Virus record (IMG/VR): IMGVR_UViG_2751185632_000005
Coordinates: 25,472-89,471 of that record
From: a virus
Taxonomy: Duplodnaviria; Caudoviricetes
Strand: one strand, 5' to 3'
Length of the DNA: 64,000 nt
Shown here piece after piece: positions 19,993-28,758 of this stretch. The notes beneath the pieces are model-generated. The model was given only the letters and a program-made list of their open reading frames with translations, searched no databases and had not been told where the DNA came from. Numbering within the stretch: the stretch's first letter is position 1; each line of letters opens with the position of its first letter. The position numbers and the translations under genes are program-made.

Positions 19993-21534
19993 TCAGTAGA
20001 AGGTCCTCCCGTCTTTATAGACGCGGACGATGCAGGTGTTGACATAGGTCCCGACCTCGGCGAACGAACCGGCCGGCAGGTCGGACCACTTTGCGTGCAT
20101 CTTCTCCATCATCTCGCGGAAGGCAATGGCCTTCCTGGTCTCGCGAAACTCGGTGCCCGCCGACATGATGGCGGCCAGATAACCGTCGGGCTTCAAGAAC
20201 TTCAGCGCGTGGACGACATGGTCGATGTCGCGCTCTCGATCGAACGGCGGGTTCATGGCCACCACGTCGTAGAGGGCGTCCGGATCCGGCCGCATCTGCA
20301 TGAAGTCGCCGCAGGTGACGCGGTTGTAGATGCCCTCGGACTCGAGCTGCATGGCGAGGTGCGGCTGGATCTCGATGCAGTCGACCTTGTTGTCGAAGCG
20401 ATACTCCTTGCCGTAGCGCTCACGCTGCCATTCGGGGAAGTCCTCCCACCGCGTGAAGCAGCGTCGGGCCAGGTTGCCAGTACCCGCCGATGGCTCAAGG
20501 ATGCGAAGTGGAGGCTTGTCGGCCGGGCGAAGGAGTGGGGTGCCCGACAGCAGTTCGTCGGCGGCGGCCTCCGGCGTCGGGAAGAAGCCGAAGTAGCGGG
20601 CCGGCGTCGTCTTTACTTCCGAGAGTGGGTCGGCTTCCTCCGTCTGGCCGTCGCCGATCACTTCGCCGTACCAGTCGGCCAGAACCTTGTTCACCTTTTC
20701 GACGAGATCGTCTCGGGTGAACCAGAGATGAGCGTTGCCGTTCTTGAATATCCGGATTTTAAAGTAATCTCCGTGATGCTCGGATTGCTTCGGGTTCCAT
20801 GTTCCTTGCCGCTCGCGATCGACGGTGCCGACGATGCCGGCGTAGCTGGCCTTCGGGCTCTTGCCGTCGAGGATCTGGAATGCCCGCTCGATATCGAGGA
20901 GGGTGTCCTGCTGGCTCCGATACCCCCAGCACCATCGGCCGCTATCGTCGAAAGCGTGGTTCAGGATAAGCCGCGAGCCGATCTTAAAGCCGTCATGCGA
21001 ACGGAAGCGACGATCAAGCCTGGTGAAGGCGTTGGCGACGCCGCGTCGGAAAATGAGATCCGCATCGGCCTGGAAATGCTCCAGCGTGGCAAAGATGTTT
21101 TCGACCGTCACCGGCGGTAGGCCGCGTTCGATCTCGTCCATGTTGATCACCGCTCCCTTCTCGTTGGTGCGCTCCGGCACATAGCGCATCTGGTCGCGGA
21201 GCTTGTCCTTGGCTTCCTTGTCCATGAGGGATTCGATTTCGGTGGTCTGGATGATGTGCGACCAGACGTCGAGGTCGATCAGCCGCCGCGCGGTGCGGAG
21301 ATACTGGTCGCGGTCCGGCATCCGGACTGCCTTGGCAAAGGCCTTGGTCTCCCGGCTGTCGTCGTAATAGTGCGGCGAGGCGCCGGGGGCCGCAGCGCGC
21401 CACAAGCCTGCTGCCTCCTTGAGAATGGCGTCGGCGGCGGCGATAGCACCGAACGCCTCCTCGTATTTCCGGATGGCTGCATCACGGAACCGGACGATCG
21501 TCTCGACCGAGTTGCGGGGTATAAGCGCGTTCAT
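19993..21534 (-). CDS. DUF4942-domain class I SAM-dependent (N6-adenine) methyltransferase
   Basis: YFKIRIFKNGNAHLWF, FFPTP, ILEPSAGTG, VAMNPPF. Confidence 0.85.
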   Translation of the reverse strand: MNALIPRNSVETIVRFRDAAIRKYEEAFGAIAAADAILKEAAGLWRAAAPGASPHYYDDSRETKAFAKAVRMPDRDQYLRTARRLIDLDVWSHIIQTTEIESLMDKEAKDKLRDQMRYVPERTNEKGAVINMDEIERGLPPVTVENIFATLEHFQADADLIFRRGVANAFTRLDRRFRSHDGFKIGSRLILNHAFDDSGRWCWGYRSQQDTLLDIERAFQILDGKSPKASYAGIVGTVDRERQGTWNPKQSEHHGDYFKIRIFKNGNAHLWFTRDDLVEKVNKVLADWYGEVIGDGQTEEADPLSEVKTTPARYFGFFPTPEAAADELLSGTPLLRPADKPPLRILEPSAGTGNLARRCFTRWEDFPEWQRERYGKEYRFDNKVDCIEIQPHLAMQLESEGIYNRVTCGDFMQMRPDPDALYDVVAMNPPFDRERDIDHVVHALKFLKPDGYLAAIMSAGTEFRETRKAIAFREMMEKMHAKWSDLPAGSFAEVGTYVNTCIVRVYKDGRTFY

Positions 21535-21535
21535 G

Positions 21536-22033
21536 TCAGTCTCCGTTGGTGCCATGCGTGGCGGGGGTATCGAGAGGCGGAAGCCCTTGGCGGGCGCGCG
21601 CTCGGTTGACGATGTCGGTGAAGTCGACGGCCTTCAGGCCGGGGCCTCGGTAGATCCAGGGCGGATTGTCTGGGTCGAGTTTGCCGTGGTCGAACTGGTA
21701 GAGCATGTCGAGCAGGTATTCCGGCGTTGCCGGGTATGGCGCTGTGTTCCACAAGCGGGTTAGCGCTCGCCTGGTGTTGTCTCCATAGGCGAACAACTGG
21801 GTGCGGGCGCGCCGCCAGCCCGCCGCCCTTCTGTTCCGGACATTCTGCTCCCAAATGGTCCGCCTCACCGCCCGCTCAGCCATCACGGTGTCCGCGGCAG
21901 GCTGCTGCTCGGCGATCATCTCGGCCAGCAGCGGCAGCCTTTCGCGCTCGAGCCTTTGCTTCCTGGCGAGAGCCGCCCGCTTGCGCGACGTGTCCTCGTA
22001 GGGGCCGTAGCGCTGCTTCCTCGTGAATCTCAT
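21536..22033 (-). CDS. Conserved hypothetical protein (Rhizobiales mobile-element type)
   Basis: YEDTSRKRAALARKQRLERERLPLLAEMIAEQQP...W...YP...YLLDML. Confidence 0.75.
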   Translation of the reverse strand: MRFTRKQRYGPYEDTSRKRAALARKQRLERERLPLLAEMIAEQQPAADTVMAERAVRRTIWEQNVRNRRAAGWRRARTQLFAYGDNTRRALTRLWNTAPYPATPEYLLDMLYQFDHGKLDPDNPPWIYRGPGLKAVDFTDIVNRARARQGLPPLDTPATHGTNGD

Positions 22034-23168: not shown

Positions 23169-24356
23169 TCACGCTGCGATGCTGATCGGCTCTCCGAATG
23201 GCACCTTGGCGGCAAGCTGGTCGAAGGATCGGGCATCGCCGTAGACGCCCCACAGAACAGGCATCGGCGGCTCGCGCCCGAAGTCGTAGACCTCCAGGTC
23301 GGTGAGGTAGATGCAGGCGCGGGCGTCGGGATAGTCCCGTTCGATTCTACGGAATGTGTCGGAAAACGCGGTGCCGCCGCCGCCGGCCGGATGGAGCACC
23401 AGTTCGTCGCCGGTCTCGAACTCCTCGACGCGCTGAACCGCCGCATCGGCGTAGATGACGGTGATCCTGTCCACCGCTCCCTCGCAGAAGGCGCCGTTGA
23501 TCTCGGCGGCGAAGGCGCGGAGGATCTCGTCGTTGATGGACCCGGAGGTGTCCACCGCGATCACGATGTGCGAGACGCCATCGGAGATAGTGCCGGGAGT
23601 GATGAGCCCGTGCGGGATCAGGCGCCGGTTCGGCCTGGACCATGCGAAGTCGCGCGTGGTGGACTCGTCGACGAAACGGCGGAGCACCGACCGCCAGTCC
23701 ACCTTCGGCTTCAGAAGCTCGTCCACGAGGCGCTGGATGCCCGCCGGCAGGCTTCCGGCATTGGCGGCCTTGGCGATGTTCGCCGCCTGCCTAACGGCCG
23801 TCTGCATCTCAGCACGGGCCTCGGCGAGGGCGGCTTCGTCATGCGCCGGCGCCGCATCGAGAACGGCGCCACACCCACCTGGGTCCTGTCCGCCTTGTGC
23901 GCCGTTCACGCCGCCATCGGCATCTTCCTGAAGAAGGCGATAGATTTCTTCCGCCGAGAGCCCGGTGTAGGCCGGATCGATCAGGGCGCCCTTTGGCATA
24001 GCAATGGCGACCTTCGTGGTCTTGGAGTTTGCCCGAATATACGCATCGAGCTCGCCGTTGATGGCATAATCGCAGGCCATGTTCCAGCGCCGCTGATCGC
24101 GTGTCTGCCTGCGGATGTGGTGCTCGAGGGCGTTGTGCATGACCTCGTGGGCCAGCACGAACACCAGTTCCGGCTTCTTCAACCCGTCGACGAACTTTCG
24201 GTCGAAGAACAGATTGCGACCATCGGTCGCCATAGTGTCGATGCGCGAGTCATTTGTGGCCTCTGAGAGCCTCAGGCGGGTGGTTAGTGCCCCGAAGAAC
24301 GGGTGGTTCCACATAAGCTCGGTCATGGACCAGAGAATCTTGTCCTCGGCGATCAT
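23169..24356 (-). CDS. Zn-metallopeptidase-like plus vWA domain protein (DUF2201-like)
   Basis: TMATDG, LAHEVMH (HExxH), WNMACDYAIN, WSRPNRR, VDTSGS (MIDAS), GGGGTAF, YLTDL. Confidence 0.88.
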   Translation of the reverse strand: MIAEDKILWSMTELMWNHPFFGALTTRLRLSEATNDSRIDTMATDGRNLFFDRKFVDGLKKPELVFVLAHEVMHNALEHHIRRQTRDQRRWNMACDYAINGELDAYIRANSKTTKVAIAMPKGALIDPAYTGLSAEEIYRLLQEDADGGVNGAQGGQDPGGCGAVLDAAPAHDEAALAEARAEMQTAVRQAANIAKAANAGSLPAGIQRLVDELLKPKVDWRSVLRRFVDESTTRDFAWSRPNRRLIPHGLITPGTISDGVSHIVIAVDTSGSINDEILRAFAAEINGAFCEGAVDRITVIYADAAVQRVEEFETGDELVLHPAGGGGTAFSDTFRRIERDYPDARACIYLTDLEVYDFGREPPMPVLWGVYGDARSFDQLAAKVPFGEPISIAA

Positions 24357-24721
24357 GATGTAGCTCCCTTCATGGAGATTCGAGCGCAGAGCGCGATGTC
24401 TTCGGGCGGTAGACGGGAGCGGAGCACGTTGGTAACCGTGCCGCTGAAGACCTTGGCGTTCGCGCCCCTGATGAACATGTCCTTGTCGACGAGAGGGCCG
24501 GCACTCTTCCAATGGGTGGTCCCGCTTTTATCGACAACGCGCATTGACTGCGGTTGCGACCGGAATACGGAGAATGACCGGTCTTCCGCTCGGTAGATCA
24601 GCGTCCAGTGGGCAGTTTCATAGTTGGCGAGAATGCCAATGAATCCCCAGCGGATGCCGATATCTCCCGCCGTCACGATCTCTCGGCCGAATGGCCCCAT
24701 CACTTTTCGGAAGTCAGCCAT
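24353..24721 (-). CDS. Tandem paralog 5 of an uncharacterised ~110-aa family
   Basis: WTLIYRAEDRSF...VTNVLRSRLPPEDIALCARISM. Confidence 0.75.
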   Translation of the reverse strand: MADFRKVMGPFGREIVTAGDIGIRWGFIGILANYETAHWTLIYRAEDRSFSVFRSQPQSMRVVDKSGTTHWKSAGPLVDKDMFIRGANAKVFSGTVTNVLRSRLPPEDIALCARISMKGATS

Positions 24722-25058
24722 GAGCCTTCCTCCTGCCATTCATCGAAAGCCGGGTGCATCGTGCCAGATCCTCCGGCTTGAGGCGGGCCTTCAGGATGTC
24801 GGTGACGAAGCCCTCTTCGATCTCGCCCTTAGCGACAGAGGGGATTGAGAACAGATCTCTCCCCATTAACTTCCGTGCCCGTTCGGCTGCGACGGCGGAC
24901 ATGATGCGGCGGCATTTGAACCGGCGCGTATCGGCGAAATAGATGAGCTTCCACTCGCAGAGTTCGCCGTCTTCCTTCATGCCGGAAAACCACCAGGTGA
25001 CCCGGCCGAATGCTTCCTCGGTCTTTCTTGGACCCCAGACGCTCTTGATCCTCGGCAT
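24714..25058 (-). CDS. Tandem paralog 4
   Basis: WKLIYFADTRRF...VTDILKARLKPEDLARCTRLSM. Confidence 0.75.
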   Translation of the reverse strand: MPRIKSVWGPRKTEEAFGRVTWWFSGMKEDGELCEWKLIYFADTRRFKCRRIMSAVAAERARKLMGRDLFSIPSVAKGEIEEGFVTDILKARLKPEDLARCTRLSMNGRRKAHG

Positions 25059-25061
25059 GGT

Positions 25062-25367
25062 TCACTCCGAAAGCGCGGCTGCCAAGCAGGCCGCGAGGTC
25101 GGCCGGCGGCAGAAGGCTGCGGAGATGATCACGGAGGCTTCCGTCCGGTATGTCGATTGGGCGGTGACCGAGAGCCAGCATCATCTTCGGGTTCACCGCG
25201 AAGAAATCCCCGGCCTTTCGCAGGCTGAACTTGCGATTGGAGTGGGTGAATTCGAGAGTCCATCGCAGGACAGAGCCGCTCTCGTAGGTGACCATGAATT
25301 CGAAGGTGGTCACGTTCCAGTCAGTGTGCCGGCTGAGCGGCCCCTCGATGCAGAGTGGTTTGGTCAT
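25062..25367 (-). CDS. Tandem paralog 3
   Basis: WTLEFTHSNRKF...LRDHLRSLLPPADLAACLAAAL. Confidence 0.75.
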   Translation of the reverse strand: MTKPLCIEGPLSRHTDWNVTTFEFMVTYESGSVLRWTLEFTHSNRKFSLRKAGDFFAVNPKMMLALGHRPIDIPDGSLRDHLRSLLPPADLAACLAAALSE

Positions 25368-25681
25368 AATCGCCGATCTCCGTACAGCGACATGGCGGCG
25401 CACTCAGCCATTTCCTTGGGGGTGAGCAAGGATTTCAGGTGGTCCACGAGTGGCACCGTGATGGTGAACTGCGTTCGTCCCAACCTCTTCAGATGGGCCA
25501 GACGCTTAAGGTCTTTCGGCCAATGTCGCTCTTTTCGGGTGCTGAACTCGCGTAACTCAGGGTTATACTGGAGTAAGTACGTAGCGAAGTCGCCATTGAT
25601 GAACGTCACGACAAAGGTGAAGTTTGCGATATACCATCCCGAAACGCAGCCGCGTCGCTCGATATCGATGACTTGTCTCAT
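25364..25681 (-). CDS. Tandem paralog 2
   Basis: YLLQYNPELREF...LVDHLKSLLTPKEMAECAAMSL. Confidence 0.75.
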   Translation of the reverse strand: MRQVIDIERRGCVSGWYIANFTFVVTFINGDFATYLLQYNPELREFSTRKERHWPKDLKRLAHLKRLGRTQFTITVPLVDHLKSLLTPKEMAECAAMSLYGDRRL

Positions 25682-25683
25682 GC

Positions 25684-26031
25684 TTAGATCTTTCTTGCAG
25701 TGAGTGAGGCGCCAGCAACCGTCGCAAGATCGCGATCTGTAAGCATCCCGCGTAGGGCATTCACGATCTTCCCTTTCGGCAAGGCGGAACGGAGGACGGC
25801 GATTGGCCGAAACAGGGAGGCAAGCCGGTCGGCATGCGCCTGCTCCCACCCGTTGCGCGCCGGCGCGATGACGCGGAAGGCTCTGGTCGGCGTCTCGAAG
25901 ACGAGCGTGTAGCGCCGGATGCGGCCGAGATCGTCTCCGGCAATAAACGTCCATTGGAAGGCTACGCCGCCCTCGATGAGCGTCTTCCGGTAGCCGGTTG
26001 GGCCGGCAACCCAGACGATGGCGCCGCTCAT
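25684..26031 (-). CDS. Tandem paralog 1
   Basis: YTLVFETPTRAF...IVNALRGMLTDRDLATVAGASL. Confidence 0.75.
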   Translation of the reverse strand: MSGAIVWVAGPTGYRKTLIEGGVAFQWTFIAGDDLGRIRRYTLVFETPTRAFRVIAPARNGWEQAHADRLASLFRPIAVLRSALPKGKIVNALRGMLTDRDLATVAGASLTARKI

Positions 26032-27014
26032 CCGAACACGACGTCCTGGTTCCGGACGGTCCAGTCTATAAAGGCCTGCGTGTGCGAGAGCTTGCCGTCA
26101 CGCCGGACAGCGTCCGTCATGAACAGGATCTCGAACTCGCGCGGCAGGCGCTGCATGTAGATCATGGCGTTGCCGATGGTCTTGTCGGTCACCTTGCGGG
26201 CGAGGCCCGAGCTGATGGCGAAGCGCGCCGACGAGTCCTCGGGCACCTTGGCGCCGGTGGGATTGCTAAGCACCAGGTCGAGCGAAGGCAGCCCCTGGTA
26301 GACGCGGATGAAGCCCTCGAGTTCGGCGGCCGCGCCTTCGCCCACGATGCCGGCAATAAGCGCCAGCCGGAGCGGAGACGGCTGTTGGACCACCTTGCCG
26401 ACCTGCTCCCACGCCCTCGGCGTAGGGAAGGCGCGGAGATGATCACCGTTCATGTCGTGCAGGAGGGCAGGGCGCCAGCGCAGGAAGGCGACGATGATCG
26501 GATCGACGCCGATCCTGTTGAAGTGGTGGACGGTGGTGTCGACGTCCGGGTCGACGTCGATGTGCGCGAACCGATTGGCAAGCGCCGACGGCATGCGTTG
26601 CGCGGCGGCGCGGTCGGACTGGCGGTTGCCGGCGGCCACGACGCGCCAGCCCGGCGGAAGCTGGTAGTCGCCGACGCGGCGATCGAGCACCAGGCCGAAC
26701 ATGGCGGCCTGCATCGAGGGCGCGGCGGCGTTGATCTCGTCGAGGAACAGGATGCCTTCGGCGCCGTCGCGGCCGGGCTGTGGAAACTCGTCGGGAACCT
26801 TCCACTTGGTGGTGTCTGCGGTGAGATCGGGCAGGCCCATGAGGGCCACCGGATCACGGGTGGATGCGCGGAAGTCGACGAGGCCCCAGCTCCGCTCGTT
26901 GACGATGTCACGAACGATGGAAGACTTGCCGACGCCGGGCTGGCCCCACATCATGACGGGAATATCGGCGTCGAGGAAGGCGTAGAGGGCCTGCGCTGCG
27001 GTCTGCAGATTCAT
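26028..27014 (-). CDS. MoxR-like AAA+ ATPase
   Basis: WGQPGVGKS Walker A, ILFLDEIN Walker B, VAAGNR, ALANRF, TPRAWE. Confidence 0.9.
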   Translation of the reverse strand: MNLQTAAQALYAFLDADIPVMMWGQPGVGKSSIVRDIVNERSWGLVDFRASTRDPVALMGLPDLTADTTKWKVPDEFPQPGRDGAEGILFLDEINAAAPSMQAAMFGLVLDRRVGDYQLPPGWRVVAAGNRQSDRAAAQRMPSALANRFAHIDVDPDVDTTVHHFNRIGVDPIIVAFLRWRPALLHDMNGDHLRAFPTPRAWEQVGKVVQQPSPLRLALIAGIVGEGAAAELEGFIRVYQGLPSLDLVLSNPTGAKVPEDSSARFAISSGLARKVTDKTIGNAMIYMQRLPREFEILFMTDAVRRDGKLSHTQAFIDWTVRNQDVVFG

Positions 27015-27184
27015 GGTTGGTCTCCTGGTGTCGCATGATCGCGGGTTGAGGAAGAGGGGTGGAGTGGGGTAATCTGAAACTGGGCGCGACTATTGCATGC
27101 GCTCATGTCCCCGGCCGCCAAAATTAGGCGAAGAAGTCGGAGAATATAGGACAGCGTACATTGATGACATACTGGCTTGATCTG

Positions 27185-27382
27185 ATGAGAATATCGTCCA
27201 AAGAAAACACAGGCGCCTTCGTCGTTTATTCCTACCCTATAGAGGCAGAGAGCGACGGCGAGGCCAAGGTTTTGGCTTCTGAGAAAAGCCTGATCCCGTT
27301 TTTCGATGACTACGATTACGCGGTGCTCATCTTGGGAAGCGGAGAGGTCGTAGCGACCTTCGGGGAGATGGCCGGCCTCTGA
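27185..27382 (+). CDS. Small lower-GC hypothetical protein, opposite to operon orientation
   Basis: MRISSKENTGAFVVYSYPIEAESDGEAK... Confidence 0.45.
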   Translation: MRISSKENTGAFVVYSYPIEAESDGEAKVLASEKSLIPFFDDYDYAVLILGSGEVVATFGEMAGL

Positions 27383-27428
27383 CCACTCCAAAAGAGATGA
27401 AAGGTGGCGCCCGCAGATGGGCGCCATC

Positions 27429-27839
27429 TCATTTCCACACGATGGTATCGGGAAACAGCACGGCGGGGCCGCAGATAGCCGGTGCCGATTCAAGGATTTC
27501 CCGCCTGGTGCATCTGAAGTCCGGCATCAGAATTTCGCCGGGCATCCAAGAGACATGATGGTATTGGGAATGCACAAAGTTGGCCTGGTAGATGTCTGTC
27601 GCCCTGACGTTCCGGATGTGCCGCCCGTTGATGGCTGAGGTCTCGCCGACGAACATGTCTCGGCGGTGACCATCGTACAGAACAGACACATGCTCGAACG
27701 GCTCATCGAAGAACTGAGTGATCGCCTGCGAGATGGAGTTGAACGCCACGCCGAGCAACGGGGCGTAGAAGGGCTGTATCTCCCCGATGACGGGGATGAG
27801 GAGGAACGTTGCCACGGTGGTTCGGGCCGGCGTTGCCAC
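27429..27839 (-). CDS. Hypothetical protein
   Basis: GTG start after a GGAGG RBS, just downstream of the DUF3150-like gene. Confidence 0.6.
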   Translation of the reverse strand: MATPARTTVATFLLIPVIGEIQPFYAPLLGVAFNSISQAITQFFDEPFEHVSVLYDGHRRDMFVGETSAINGRHIRNVRATDIYQANFVHSQYHHVSWMPGEILMPDFRCTRREILESAPAICGPAVLFPDTIVWK

Positions 27840-27852
27840 CGGCCCGCCTCCT

Positions 27853-28758
27853 TCACGCAAGGAAATCGCCGATTTGGTCGAGGATGGCCTGCGCCTCGTT
27901 GGCAACGTCGCGGCGCTTGCCCTCGTCCTCGCGAAGGACGCTGGCGTCGTGCTCGCAAAGCACCTTCATCCGCTCCGCCAGTTCGGCGATGCGCGGGTCT
28001 CCGGTAATGTCGAGCGCCGGAAGAACGGCGAGCATGTCGCGCACGTTCTCGACCAGCGAGTCGCGGAAGATGCCTTCCGACCGCTCGCCCTTCTTGCTCG
28101 CCGGCTTGTAGGCGCCGAGCCGGTCGACCATCCGCTCTGCCAGTTCGGCGATGCGCTCGAAGATGTTGCGCACGGCAGCACGCGTCGCCTCGCCGACCTG
28201 CTGCTCAATGTCGGCGCGGATGCGCTCGGCCTGAGCGTCAGAGATGGCGACACGGAAGTCGTCGGAGGTCGGGACCGGGAGAACCTTGCAATCCATCGCG
28301 AACTTGGCGCGCAGCTCTTCCGCCTCGGGATAGTCAGCCGCCTTGAACATGCCGTTGAGGCGGGAGGCGGCAGCGGCCACATAGCCGGGGTACCTGGTGA
28401 TGAAGGAGTCGACGGCCGCGTCGAACTTGGCCGACTGGGATCGGAGCCAAGCCATGTGTGAGAGATAGGCGTCGGCAGCCATGATGCGACTACCGTCCTG
28501 CATCCACGGCAGCGTCCGCTTAAGGAATTCATTGCGGGTTTCGCTGACGATGCGCTCGATCTCCTCGAGCGCTTCCTTCGGCAGAAGCAGCTTGTTGTAG
28601 CGGCCGGCGTCCGAGGCGGCGCCGTGTTGGTCGTTCACCTCCTTGGTGACTTCGCGGTCGAGCCGCCGGCCGGACCACTGCGAGATGCGCAGCGAGACGA
28701 TCATCGCGCGGGTGGCGAGGGTAGAGGAGGCAGACTGGATCTGAGAAAAGGCGTTCAT
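27853..28758 (-). CDS. DUF3150-like protein
   Basis: IVSLRISQWSGRRLD...KLLLPK...TLPW...YP...LRAKF...FRDSLVEN. Confidence 0.7.
   Translation of the reverse strand: MNAFSQIQSASSTLATRAMIVSLRISQWSGRRLDREVTKEVNDQHGAASDAGRYNKLLLPKEALEEIERIVSETRNEFLKRTLPWMQDGSRIMAADAYLSHMAWLRSQSAKFDAAVDSFITRYPGYVAAAASRLNGMFKAADYPEAEELRAKFAMDCKVLPVPTSDDFRVAISDAQAERIRADIEQQVGEATRAAVRNIFERIAELAERMVDRLGAYKPASKKGERSEGIFRDSLVENVRDMLAVLPALDITGDPRIAELAERMKVLCEHDASVLREDEGKRRDVANEAQAILDQIGDFLA

Follow-up and report, generated by a model that had tools for sequence, protein, structure and literature searches.

The window analysed here, 64,000 nucleotides of DNA, forms part of an 89.5 kb provirus record of IMG/VR (IMGVR_UViG_2751185632_000005) and carries a tandem array of five small genes, P1 to P5, set between the genes of an AAA+ ATPase and of a zincin metallopeptidase fused to a von Willebrand factor A (vWA) domain. 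From ∼39 kb onwards, the plus strand encodes a gpA-type large terminase, a lambda-type portal, capsid, tail sheath and tape-measure proteins. A leftward block of mostly unknown genes spans ∼36 kb down to 19.5 kb and contains the ATPase/vWA module. The element hosting the module is a temperate myovirus-like prophage of Rhizobiales, and the module lies in its leftward accessory block.

All genes of the module are on the minus strand. The most upstream of them (27853-28758) encodes a DUF3150-like protein of 301 amino acids, the third large component of the module and a conserved one. It is followed by the gene of a MoxR/midasin-class AAA+ ATPase of the N4 gp24 type (26028-27014, 328 amino acids; Pfam AAA_5, phrog_1297), by P1 (25684-26031, 115 amino acids, ‘IAGP’ subfamily), P2 (25364-25681, 105 amino acids), P3 (25062-25367, 101 amino acids), P4 (24714-25058, 114 amino acids) and P5 (24353-24721, 122 amino acids), and by the gene of the zincin metallopeptidase-vWA fusion, a protein of 395 amino acids of the N4 gp25 type (23169-24356; Pfam DUF2201_N and DUF2201, phrog_1314). 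The coordinates and the Pfam matches bear out the gene order described in an earlier note made from the sequence of the window: a DUF3150-like gene, the ATPase gene, five open reading frames (ORFs) of ∼100-122 codons and an HExxH-peptidase-vWA gene. The ATPase and vWA genes are co-oriented, 1.7 kb apart, and share the provirus record with the terminase, portal, sheath and tape-measure genes. Three junctions (ATPase/P1, P2/P3 and P5/vWA) are ATGA overlaps, in which the stop codon of one gene overlaps the start codon of the next; P1 and P2 are separated by a gap of 2 nt, and P3 and P4 by one of 3 nt. The same note had all genes coupled by ATGA overlaps or gaps of 2-3 nt, which holds for five of the six junctions; the remaining one, P4/P5, is an 8-nt overlap (ATGGCTGA), a type it did not list. 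The tight packing of the array is seen again in relatives, and the coupling to both enzyme genes is conserved.

The five small ORFs are true paralogs of one family. Pairwise blastp comparisons among them yield 20-53 bits, with 46 bits for P2 against P3. A profile hidden Markov model built from 99 family representatives scores the five window proteins with E-values of 1.9e-27 (P1), 2.5e-15 (P2), 2.7e-20 (P3), 3.4e-31 (P4) and 1.5e-30 (P5). To avoid circularity, separate ortholog alignments for each paralog were built from other loci and compared by hhalign; all ten pairs are related with 92-99.6% probability over 84-110 columns. Both results uphold the earlier description of the ORFs as divergent paralogs. 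The motifs quoted for them are likewise present: a GP near the N-terminus in four of the five, [WF]-x-F, [WY]-x-L-x-[YF]-x4-R-x-F in all five, and the C-terminal helix. With a profile of the five proteins we recovered 107 matches at E ≤ 1e-3 among 1.84 billion cluster representatives, ∼100 of which are proteins of 93-145 amino acids with the same motifs. Six long matches (P0041, P0063, P0081, P0090, P0103 and P0107) were rejected as repeat proteins in which many weak matches to short stretches of the profile are summed.

The family, known from ∼100 cluster representatives, is an undescribed group of small, basic alpha+beta proteins. The 99 representatives gave only single, chance-level matches to Pfam and PHROG, the five window paralogs had no match in NCBIfam or PADLOC, and a feature search of the ESM Atlas returned no usable match. 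The median isoelectric point (pI) is 10.0, and 93% of the members exceed 9. Positions G9, P10, W25, F27, G29, W39, L41, [YF]43, R48, F50, G94, L100, [RK]101, L104 and A110 are near-invariant; variability and indels are highest at residues ∼56-93, and conservation is best in the C-terminal 30 residues. An AlphaFold2 (AF2) model of P5, built with 99 relatives (predicted local distance difference test score, pLDDT, 90.5), predicts a beta-meander of ∼7 strands followed by two C-terminal helices. In the model these helices (residues 91-120, pLDDT 93-98) are part of one compact domain. The division into a conserved helix and a variable beta-sheet put forward in the earlier note does not fit this pattern: the first four strands contain near-invariant residues (G9, P10, W25, F27, W39, L41, R48, F50), and the variable part is ∼56-93. 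Fold searches with the P5 model found nothing convincing by Foldseek (best E 0.58 in the PDB, to monellin, and 0.1 in BFVD), and against 48,161 chains VIA-align gave a best Z of 4.6 (SpoVG, root-mean-square deviation (rmsd) 4.8 over 76 residues). Alignment of the small family by hhalign to the DUF3150-like and vWA alignments revealed no relation. Run against PDB sequences, the profiles of the family and of the DUF3150-like protein matched nothing, or designed helical proteins only.

The occurrence of the family was explored from the small genes, from the ATPase and from sampled host genomes. We looked up ten diverse representatives, the weakest matches included, eight of which had enough flanking DNA. 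At all eight loci, among them those of the two weakest matches, the ATPase and DUF2201 genes enclose 2-7 small genes in a row. The ATPase at the looked-up loci has 328-339 amino acids (it is cut off by the contig end for P0058). When the ATPase (52-95% identity) served as the anchor instead, each of the 13 non-redundant loci proved to have 2-7 family members. These loci are prophages of Ensifer, Ancylobacter, Peteryoungia, Rhizobium and Hoeflea, together with metagenomic contigs. The highest member count at one locus is eight (L014). Among 400 other Rhizobiaceae genomes sampled, the family profile found four matches, all directly upstream of a vWA gene; the three of these four loci that reach far enough have the ATPase gene as well. 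The same search of 400 other genomes sampled across the host order found no match. In four host genomes the family copies are located solely at the prophage locus. No match was obtained by tblastn with P1 and P5 against 50,697 phage records, or with P5 against 72,556 plasmid records. Linkage of the family to the module is complete wherever the context is readable, and all carriers are related Rhizobiales prophages. The mapping of neighbourhoods proposed in the earlier note thus gave homologs that are not mostly elsewhere: all readable members are at an ATPase/vWA module, in 2-7 copies.

The two enzymes flanking the array have intact catalytic motifs, as judged from their sequences. The ATPase matches Pfam AAA_5 with 30.8 bits (cut-off 22) and phrog_1297 with E 1.6e-86; to AAA_3, the model of MoxR proper (MRP subfamily), it scores 18.5 bits, under the 27-bit cut-off, and is therefore MoxR-class in the broad sense only. 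A profile of the ATPase run against PDB sequences placed midasin AAA domains on top (E 1e-17), followed by CbbQ/NorQ (1e-6 to 3e-4). The vWA protein matches DUF2201_N with 154.6 bits (E 5e-45), DUF2201 with 78.6 bits (E 5.5e-22) and phrog_1314 with E 1e-94. Across 15 relatives, Walker A (G27/G29/K30) and Walker B (D92/E93) of the ATPase are invariant, as are the HExxH residues H70, E71 and H74 and the residues of the metal-ion-dependent adhesion site (MIDAS; DxSxS, T, D), D269, S271, S273, T329 and D353, of the zincin-vWA protein. When PADLOC-DB v2 was searched with the operon proteins, the ATPase alone had matches, marginal P-loop ones to RtcR/PspF models (E 9e-4 and 1e-2); neither the paralogs nor the DUF3150-like and vWA proteins had any.

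The pair itself is of a known kind. The vWA protein matches 546 phage records, with N4-like phages and the jumbo phages G and PA5oct among those listed, and a vWFA gene is one of 14 core genes of N4-like phages (PMC10783043). In ATPase class and motifs, zincin-vWA domains, co-orientation as neighbours and residence in a phage, the window pair has the features of the N4 gp24/gp25 type (PHROG 1297 and 1314). In other phages, too, the ATPase and vWA genes are often set apart by small ORFs, which are unrelated to the window family; unlike the window, N4-type phages have no described paralog array or DUF3150 partner. Pairs of a MoxR ATPase and a metallopeptidase-vWA protein were recorded in jumbo phages by Iyer et al. 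2021 (PMC7824862), who proposed that they act in virion assembly, by analogy with the MoxR-vWA pair of Acidianus two-tailed virus. In contrast, the module of the window is placed in an accessory block, at a distance from the structural genes. We found no functional study in the literature on DUF2201, DUF3150 or the N4-like vWFA.

The gene upstream of the ATPase widens the module to a triad. The 301-amino-acid protein of the window has no match in Pfam even at E 10. Six homologs with ∼52-59% identity to it score 24.8-33.5 bits on DUF3150 (PF11348) over ∼190 of the 257 model positions; five pass the cut-off of 24.9 bits and one is at the threshold. We therefore call the protein DUF3150-like by transitive homology, and the label given in the earlier note is a fair one. 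A search of 301 Alphaproteobacteria genomes with PF11348 gave no match, even in G001, which carries a homolog, and is thus uninformative. An AF2 model of the protein (pLDDT 87.5) is mostly a helical bundle with a small sheet, and a fold search with it returned generic helical bundles only (Z up to 9.6 over the C-terminal 110 residues). The gene is located upstream of the ATPase in every Rhizobiales locus that reaches far enough upstream. The same triad of DUF3150, ATPase and vWA-like genes is found on Burkholderiales plasmids (Ralstonia pickettii pRp12D0 and Burkholderia gladioli p1), with profile E-values of ∼1e-58 for the DUF3150-like protein, 1e-67 to 1e-74 for the ATPase and 1e-92 to 1e-105 for the vWA protein. 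There the order is ATPase, DUF3150 homolog, vWA-like gene (L041:3921-7212 and L042:3077-7179), and the small family is absent. The plasmid triad is associated with a DnaN-like gene, as are several prophage loci.

Genes of DnaN (the beta subunit of DNA polymerase III, the sliding clamp) recur within a few kb of the module (L027:10432-11285, L029:9865-11025 and L042:4102-4905), and on the Burkholderia gladioli conjugative plasmid one is placed directly between the ATPase gene and the DUF3150 homolog. ParB_N and DUF4942 methyltransferase genes also recur nearby. Such neighbours hint at a DNA-related or establishment role of the module, rather than one in virion assembly. In the window, the leftward block encodes downstream of the module a protein of 520 amino acids (19993-21555) that starts with a DUF4942 domain, resembles methyltransferases in its C-terminal region and is apparently an orphan DNA methyltransferase.

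A maximum-likelihood tree of 62 family members indicates that the array is old and ordered. Twelve members form a P1-type clade (support 98/98), and all of them are first after the ATPase. P4-type and P5-type clades are separate and well supported, are common to most phages and keep their relative order; the P4-type clade is common to the window, L012, L014, L015 and L020. P2 and P3 are a sister pair confined to the window, L011 and L009. A further clade (100/99) is located outside the gap between the ATPase and vWA genes, either ahead of the DUF3150 gene or in the stretch from there to the ATPase gene; it occurs at L012:3612-3986, L014:4501-4905, L015:6621-7025, L018:3067-3486 and L020:4726-5136 and has no member in the window. 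The remainder includes a loose group of very divergent members, mostly in the vWA-proximal half of the array. By this phylogeny, the P1-, P4- and P5-type subfamilies are old positional orthologs, and the array changes as subtypes are gained and lost rather than shuffled. In the Ensifer sp. MPMI2T locus (L020:6100-6434) a P4-type gene is split into ORFs of 48 and 104 codons in different frames, either by a frameshift or by an assembly error.

For a comparison of rates we used the closest relative, L011, whose ATPase is 95% identical to that of the window. The DUF3150-like and vWA proteins are 93% and 88% identical between the two loci, and P1-P5 61-73%. The paralogs show dN (nonsynonymous divergence) of 0.20-0.37 and, in four of the five, omega (dN relative to synonymous divergence, dS) of 0.19-0.32; omega of P2 was not computable, its dS being saturated. 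The corresponding values of the core genes are 0.03-0.07 for dN and 0.08-0.14 for omega. With omega of 0.19-0.32 the paralogs are under purifying selection and are thus coding genes. The dS is 2-4 times higher in the array than in the core genes. At the DNA level, identity is 87-96% in the ATPase gene, drops to 56-80% in the array (26073-24436) and is back at 82-95% in the vWA gene except for one gapped 150-bp block at 69%; taken together, the flanking core genes have 82-98% identity in all 150-bp blocks but one. The array is therefore a divergence hot spot, diverging much faster than the core genes yet under purifying selection. The raised dS suggests that the segment is exchanged between phages by recombination, besides a faster change of the proteins.

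Two further features emerged from the comparison with L011. Between the ATPase gene and a small gene that follows the DUF3150-like gene, the window contains an insertion of ∼390 bp (27045-27435) with an ORF of 73 codons on the opposite strand (27161-27382, no Pfam match), an AT-rich stretch with promoter-like hexamers and, between the convergent genes, a GC-rich hairpin (27405-27426). It looks like a moron placed within the operon. The most conserved 150-bp stretch of the region (27724-27873, 98% identity) spans the stop codon of the DUF3150-like gene and has a GC-rich stem-loop directly 3′ of it; this stretch may be a regulatory or RNA element.

Taken as a whole, the DUF3150-like protein, the AAA+ ATPase and the zincin-vWA protein constitute a mobile-element module, of which the family is a lineage-specific component. 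We consider it about an even bet (probability ∼0.5) that the small proteins are dedicated partners of the ATPase/vWA-zincin machine, as adaptors or as clients. This reading is based on the family-wide linkage, the coupling to both enzyme genes, the purifying selection, the retained subtypes and the intact machine. A positional argument is added by L019 and the Burkholderiales plasmids, where the DUF3150 homolog, another conserved component of the module, itself occupies the space between the ATPase and vWA genes. Physical contact between paralogs and machine, the direction of action (adaptor or client) and the biological target are inferred only.

Several observations weigh against such a partnership. 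All carriers belong to one related set of Rhizobiales prophages, so that shared descent alone could explain the linkage. More distant ATPase/vWA pairs do without the family: those of L019 (31% ATPase identity) and L026 (39%), of the N4-like phage JWAlpha, roseophage CRP-7 and Thermus phage phiFa, and of the Burkholderiales plasmids. Not all members are situated in the gap: some precede the DUF3150 gene or follow the vWA gene. The family lacks an invariant acidic residue such as a MIDAS ligand might need; at position 108, 75% of the members have an acidic one. The gap also holds unrelated genes, namely MazG in CRP-7, RNase H in phiFa and a 196-amino-acid protein from outside the family in L043. 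That it accepts unrelated cargo follows from the close relative L009 (ATPase 85% identical), where an inserted Imm5_like gene of 168 codons (L009:3174-3680) separates the fifth paralog from the vWA gene.

The small genes might accordingly be hitch-hikers: an independent accessory family, for instance of small basic nucleic-acid-binding or host-takeover proteins, expanded in tandem in a permissive, recombination-prone gap and linked to the module by common descent only. The presence of foreign genes in the gap, within the family's own lineage (L009 and L043) as well as in other phages, agrees with this, and so does the joint rise of dS and dN in the array, which suggests recombinational exchange. 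The family is limited to one host order and rare (4/400 Rhizobiaceae and 0/400 genomes order-wide), with no tblastn match in the phage and plasmid records; its basic character (median pI 10.0) and the recurrence of DnaN, ParB_N and DNA methyltransferase genes nearby point in the same direction. However, no member is found away from the module down to 52% ATPase identity, though other neighbours vary, and the coupling to both enzyme genes is conserved. The structural likeness of the P5 model to nucleic-acid binders is weak, with Z of 4.6 for SpoVG and 4.3 for Pur-alpha (rmsd 1.7 over 45 residues). On balance, we regard hitch-hiking as rather unlikely.

If the small proteins are dedicated partners, their mode of action may be sketched by analogy with the best solved relatives of the ATPase. 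In CbbQ/CbbO, NorQ/NorD and midasin (Rea1), a MIDAS site grips the client, and the AAA ring then remodels it. The MIDAS motif is intact in the vWA protein of the window. By this analogy, a client would be held at the vWA MIDAS site, would then be remodelled by the ATPase ring and could be cut by the fused zincin; the small proteins are produced together with both enzymes through translational coupling, and several old, non-redundant subtypes (P1, P4 and P5) are kept in each phage. The likeness is one of analogy, not of membership: midasin, CbbQ/CbbO and NorQ/NorD have no fused peptidase and act on other clients, and the MIDAS domain of midasin acts on small ubiquitin-like domains, a fold that the window paralogs lack.

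Within this scheme, the small proteins could themselves be the clients or pro-proteins, unfolded or loaded by the ATPase and cut by the zincin, so that an active fragment is freed or the protein is removed in a timed manner. The peptidase is fused to a client-binding vWA domain, its HExxH motif is invariant, and its gene is translationally coupled to the small genes. There is also a parallel with zincins that cleave small, rapidly diverging proteins with a conserved C-terminal part and are encoded beside vWA-MoxR systems (Kaur et al. 2020, PMC7159879): in the window family, too, conservation is highest over the C-terminal 30 residues. On the other hand, the conserved C-terminal helices are predicted in one compact and confident domain (pLDDT 93-98 for residues 91-120), not in a detachable peptide. 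We find no FxSxx-type or other terminal motif in the family and no C-terminal tag common to the 48 predicted window proteins. A pairing of zincin and FxSxx-COOH-type precursor was therefore rejected for the window; the five C-termini share no terminal motif and, according to the model, their helices belong to the compact domain. Cleavage of the small proteins seems about as likely as the adaptor function considered next.

In an adaptor array, a surface common to the paralogs would dock on the machine, and the divergent part would recruit different proteins of the host or of rival phages for remodelling or cleavage. The earlier note had proposed such a function, and the idea is plausible. It would account for the retention of several subtypes per phage, for a divergence hot spot flanked by conserved enzymes, and for the contrast between a conserved C-terminal pair of helices and a highly variable, indel-containing middle segment; the module, moreover, is located in an accessory block with the probable orphan DUF4942 methyltransferase and not among the virion genes. 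The details are less favourable. The adaptors had been thought interchangeable, but the P1-, P4- and P5-type subfamilies are old and retain their relative order from phage to phage, nearly always with the P1 type first. Omega is well under 1. Conserved residues occur in the N-terminal strands too, besides the helices, and the paralogs match no known defence or anti-defence family, both binding and target being presumed. We therefore hold the adaptor array to be an unlikely, if coherent, account.

The earlier note also pointed to the MoxR-vWA conflict systems with hypervariable third components; that the locus belongs to them is not supported, as the operon contains no VMAP-type protein and the paralogs have no Pfam match. 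VMAP proteins are large and tripartite, with a C-terminal domain of 7 strands and 6-7 helices and with effector domains, and are found in multicellular bacteria (Kaur et al. 2020, PMC7159879). What the VMAP ternary systems and the window have in common is a MoxR-class ATPase together with a vWA protein, in some cases with a peptidase attached, and a third component that diversifies fast. Unlike VMAP, the third component of the window is an array of single-domain phage proteins of 101-122 amino acids with no Pfam match, and no operon protein has the size or architecture of VMAP; the paralogs have ∼7 strands and 2 helices.

The core ATPase/zincin-vWA pair was already known; what is new is the small family, its ordered tandem array and its tie to the DUF3150/ATPase/vWA triad. 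The pair is core or frequent in N4-like, jumbo and many other phages and is also found on plasmids. A family found only with the ATPase/vWA pair, in several retained subtypes, offers a concrete handle on the function of the machine. Since lysogens with the module are held in culture collections (Peteryoungia aggregata DSM 1111, Rhizobium sp. CF080 and Ancylobacter sp. 3268), the question is accessible to experiment. A doubtful but far-reaching possibility is that the paralogs are specificity factors or pro-effectors through which one machine remodels or cleaves several host targets, such as defence proteins or the sliding clamp, one per subtype. If true, the widespread pair of the N4 gp24/gp25 type would amount to a programmable protease/unfoldase of phages, served by lineage-specific families of small adaptors.

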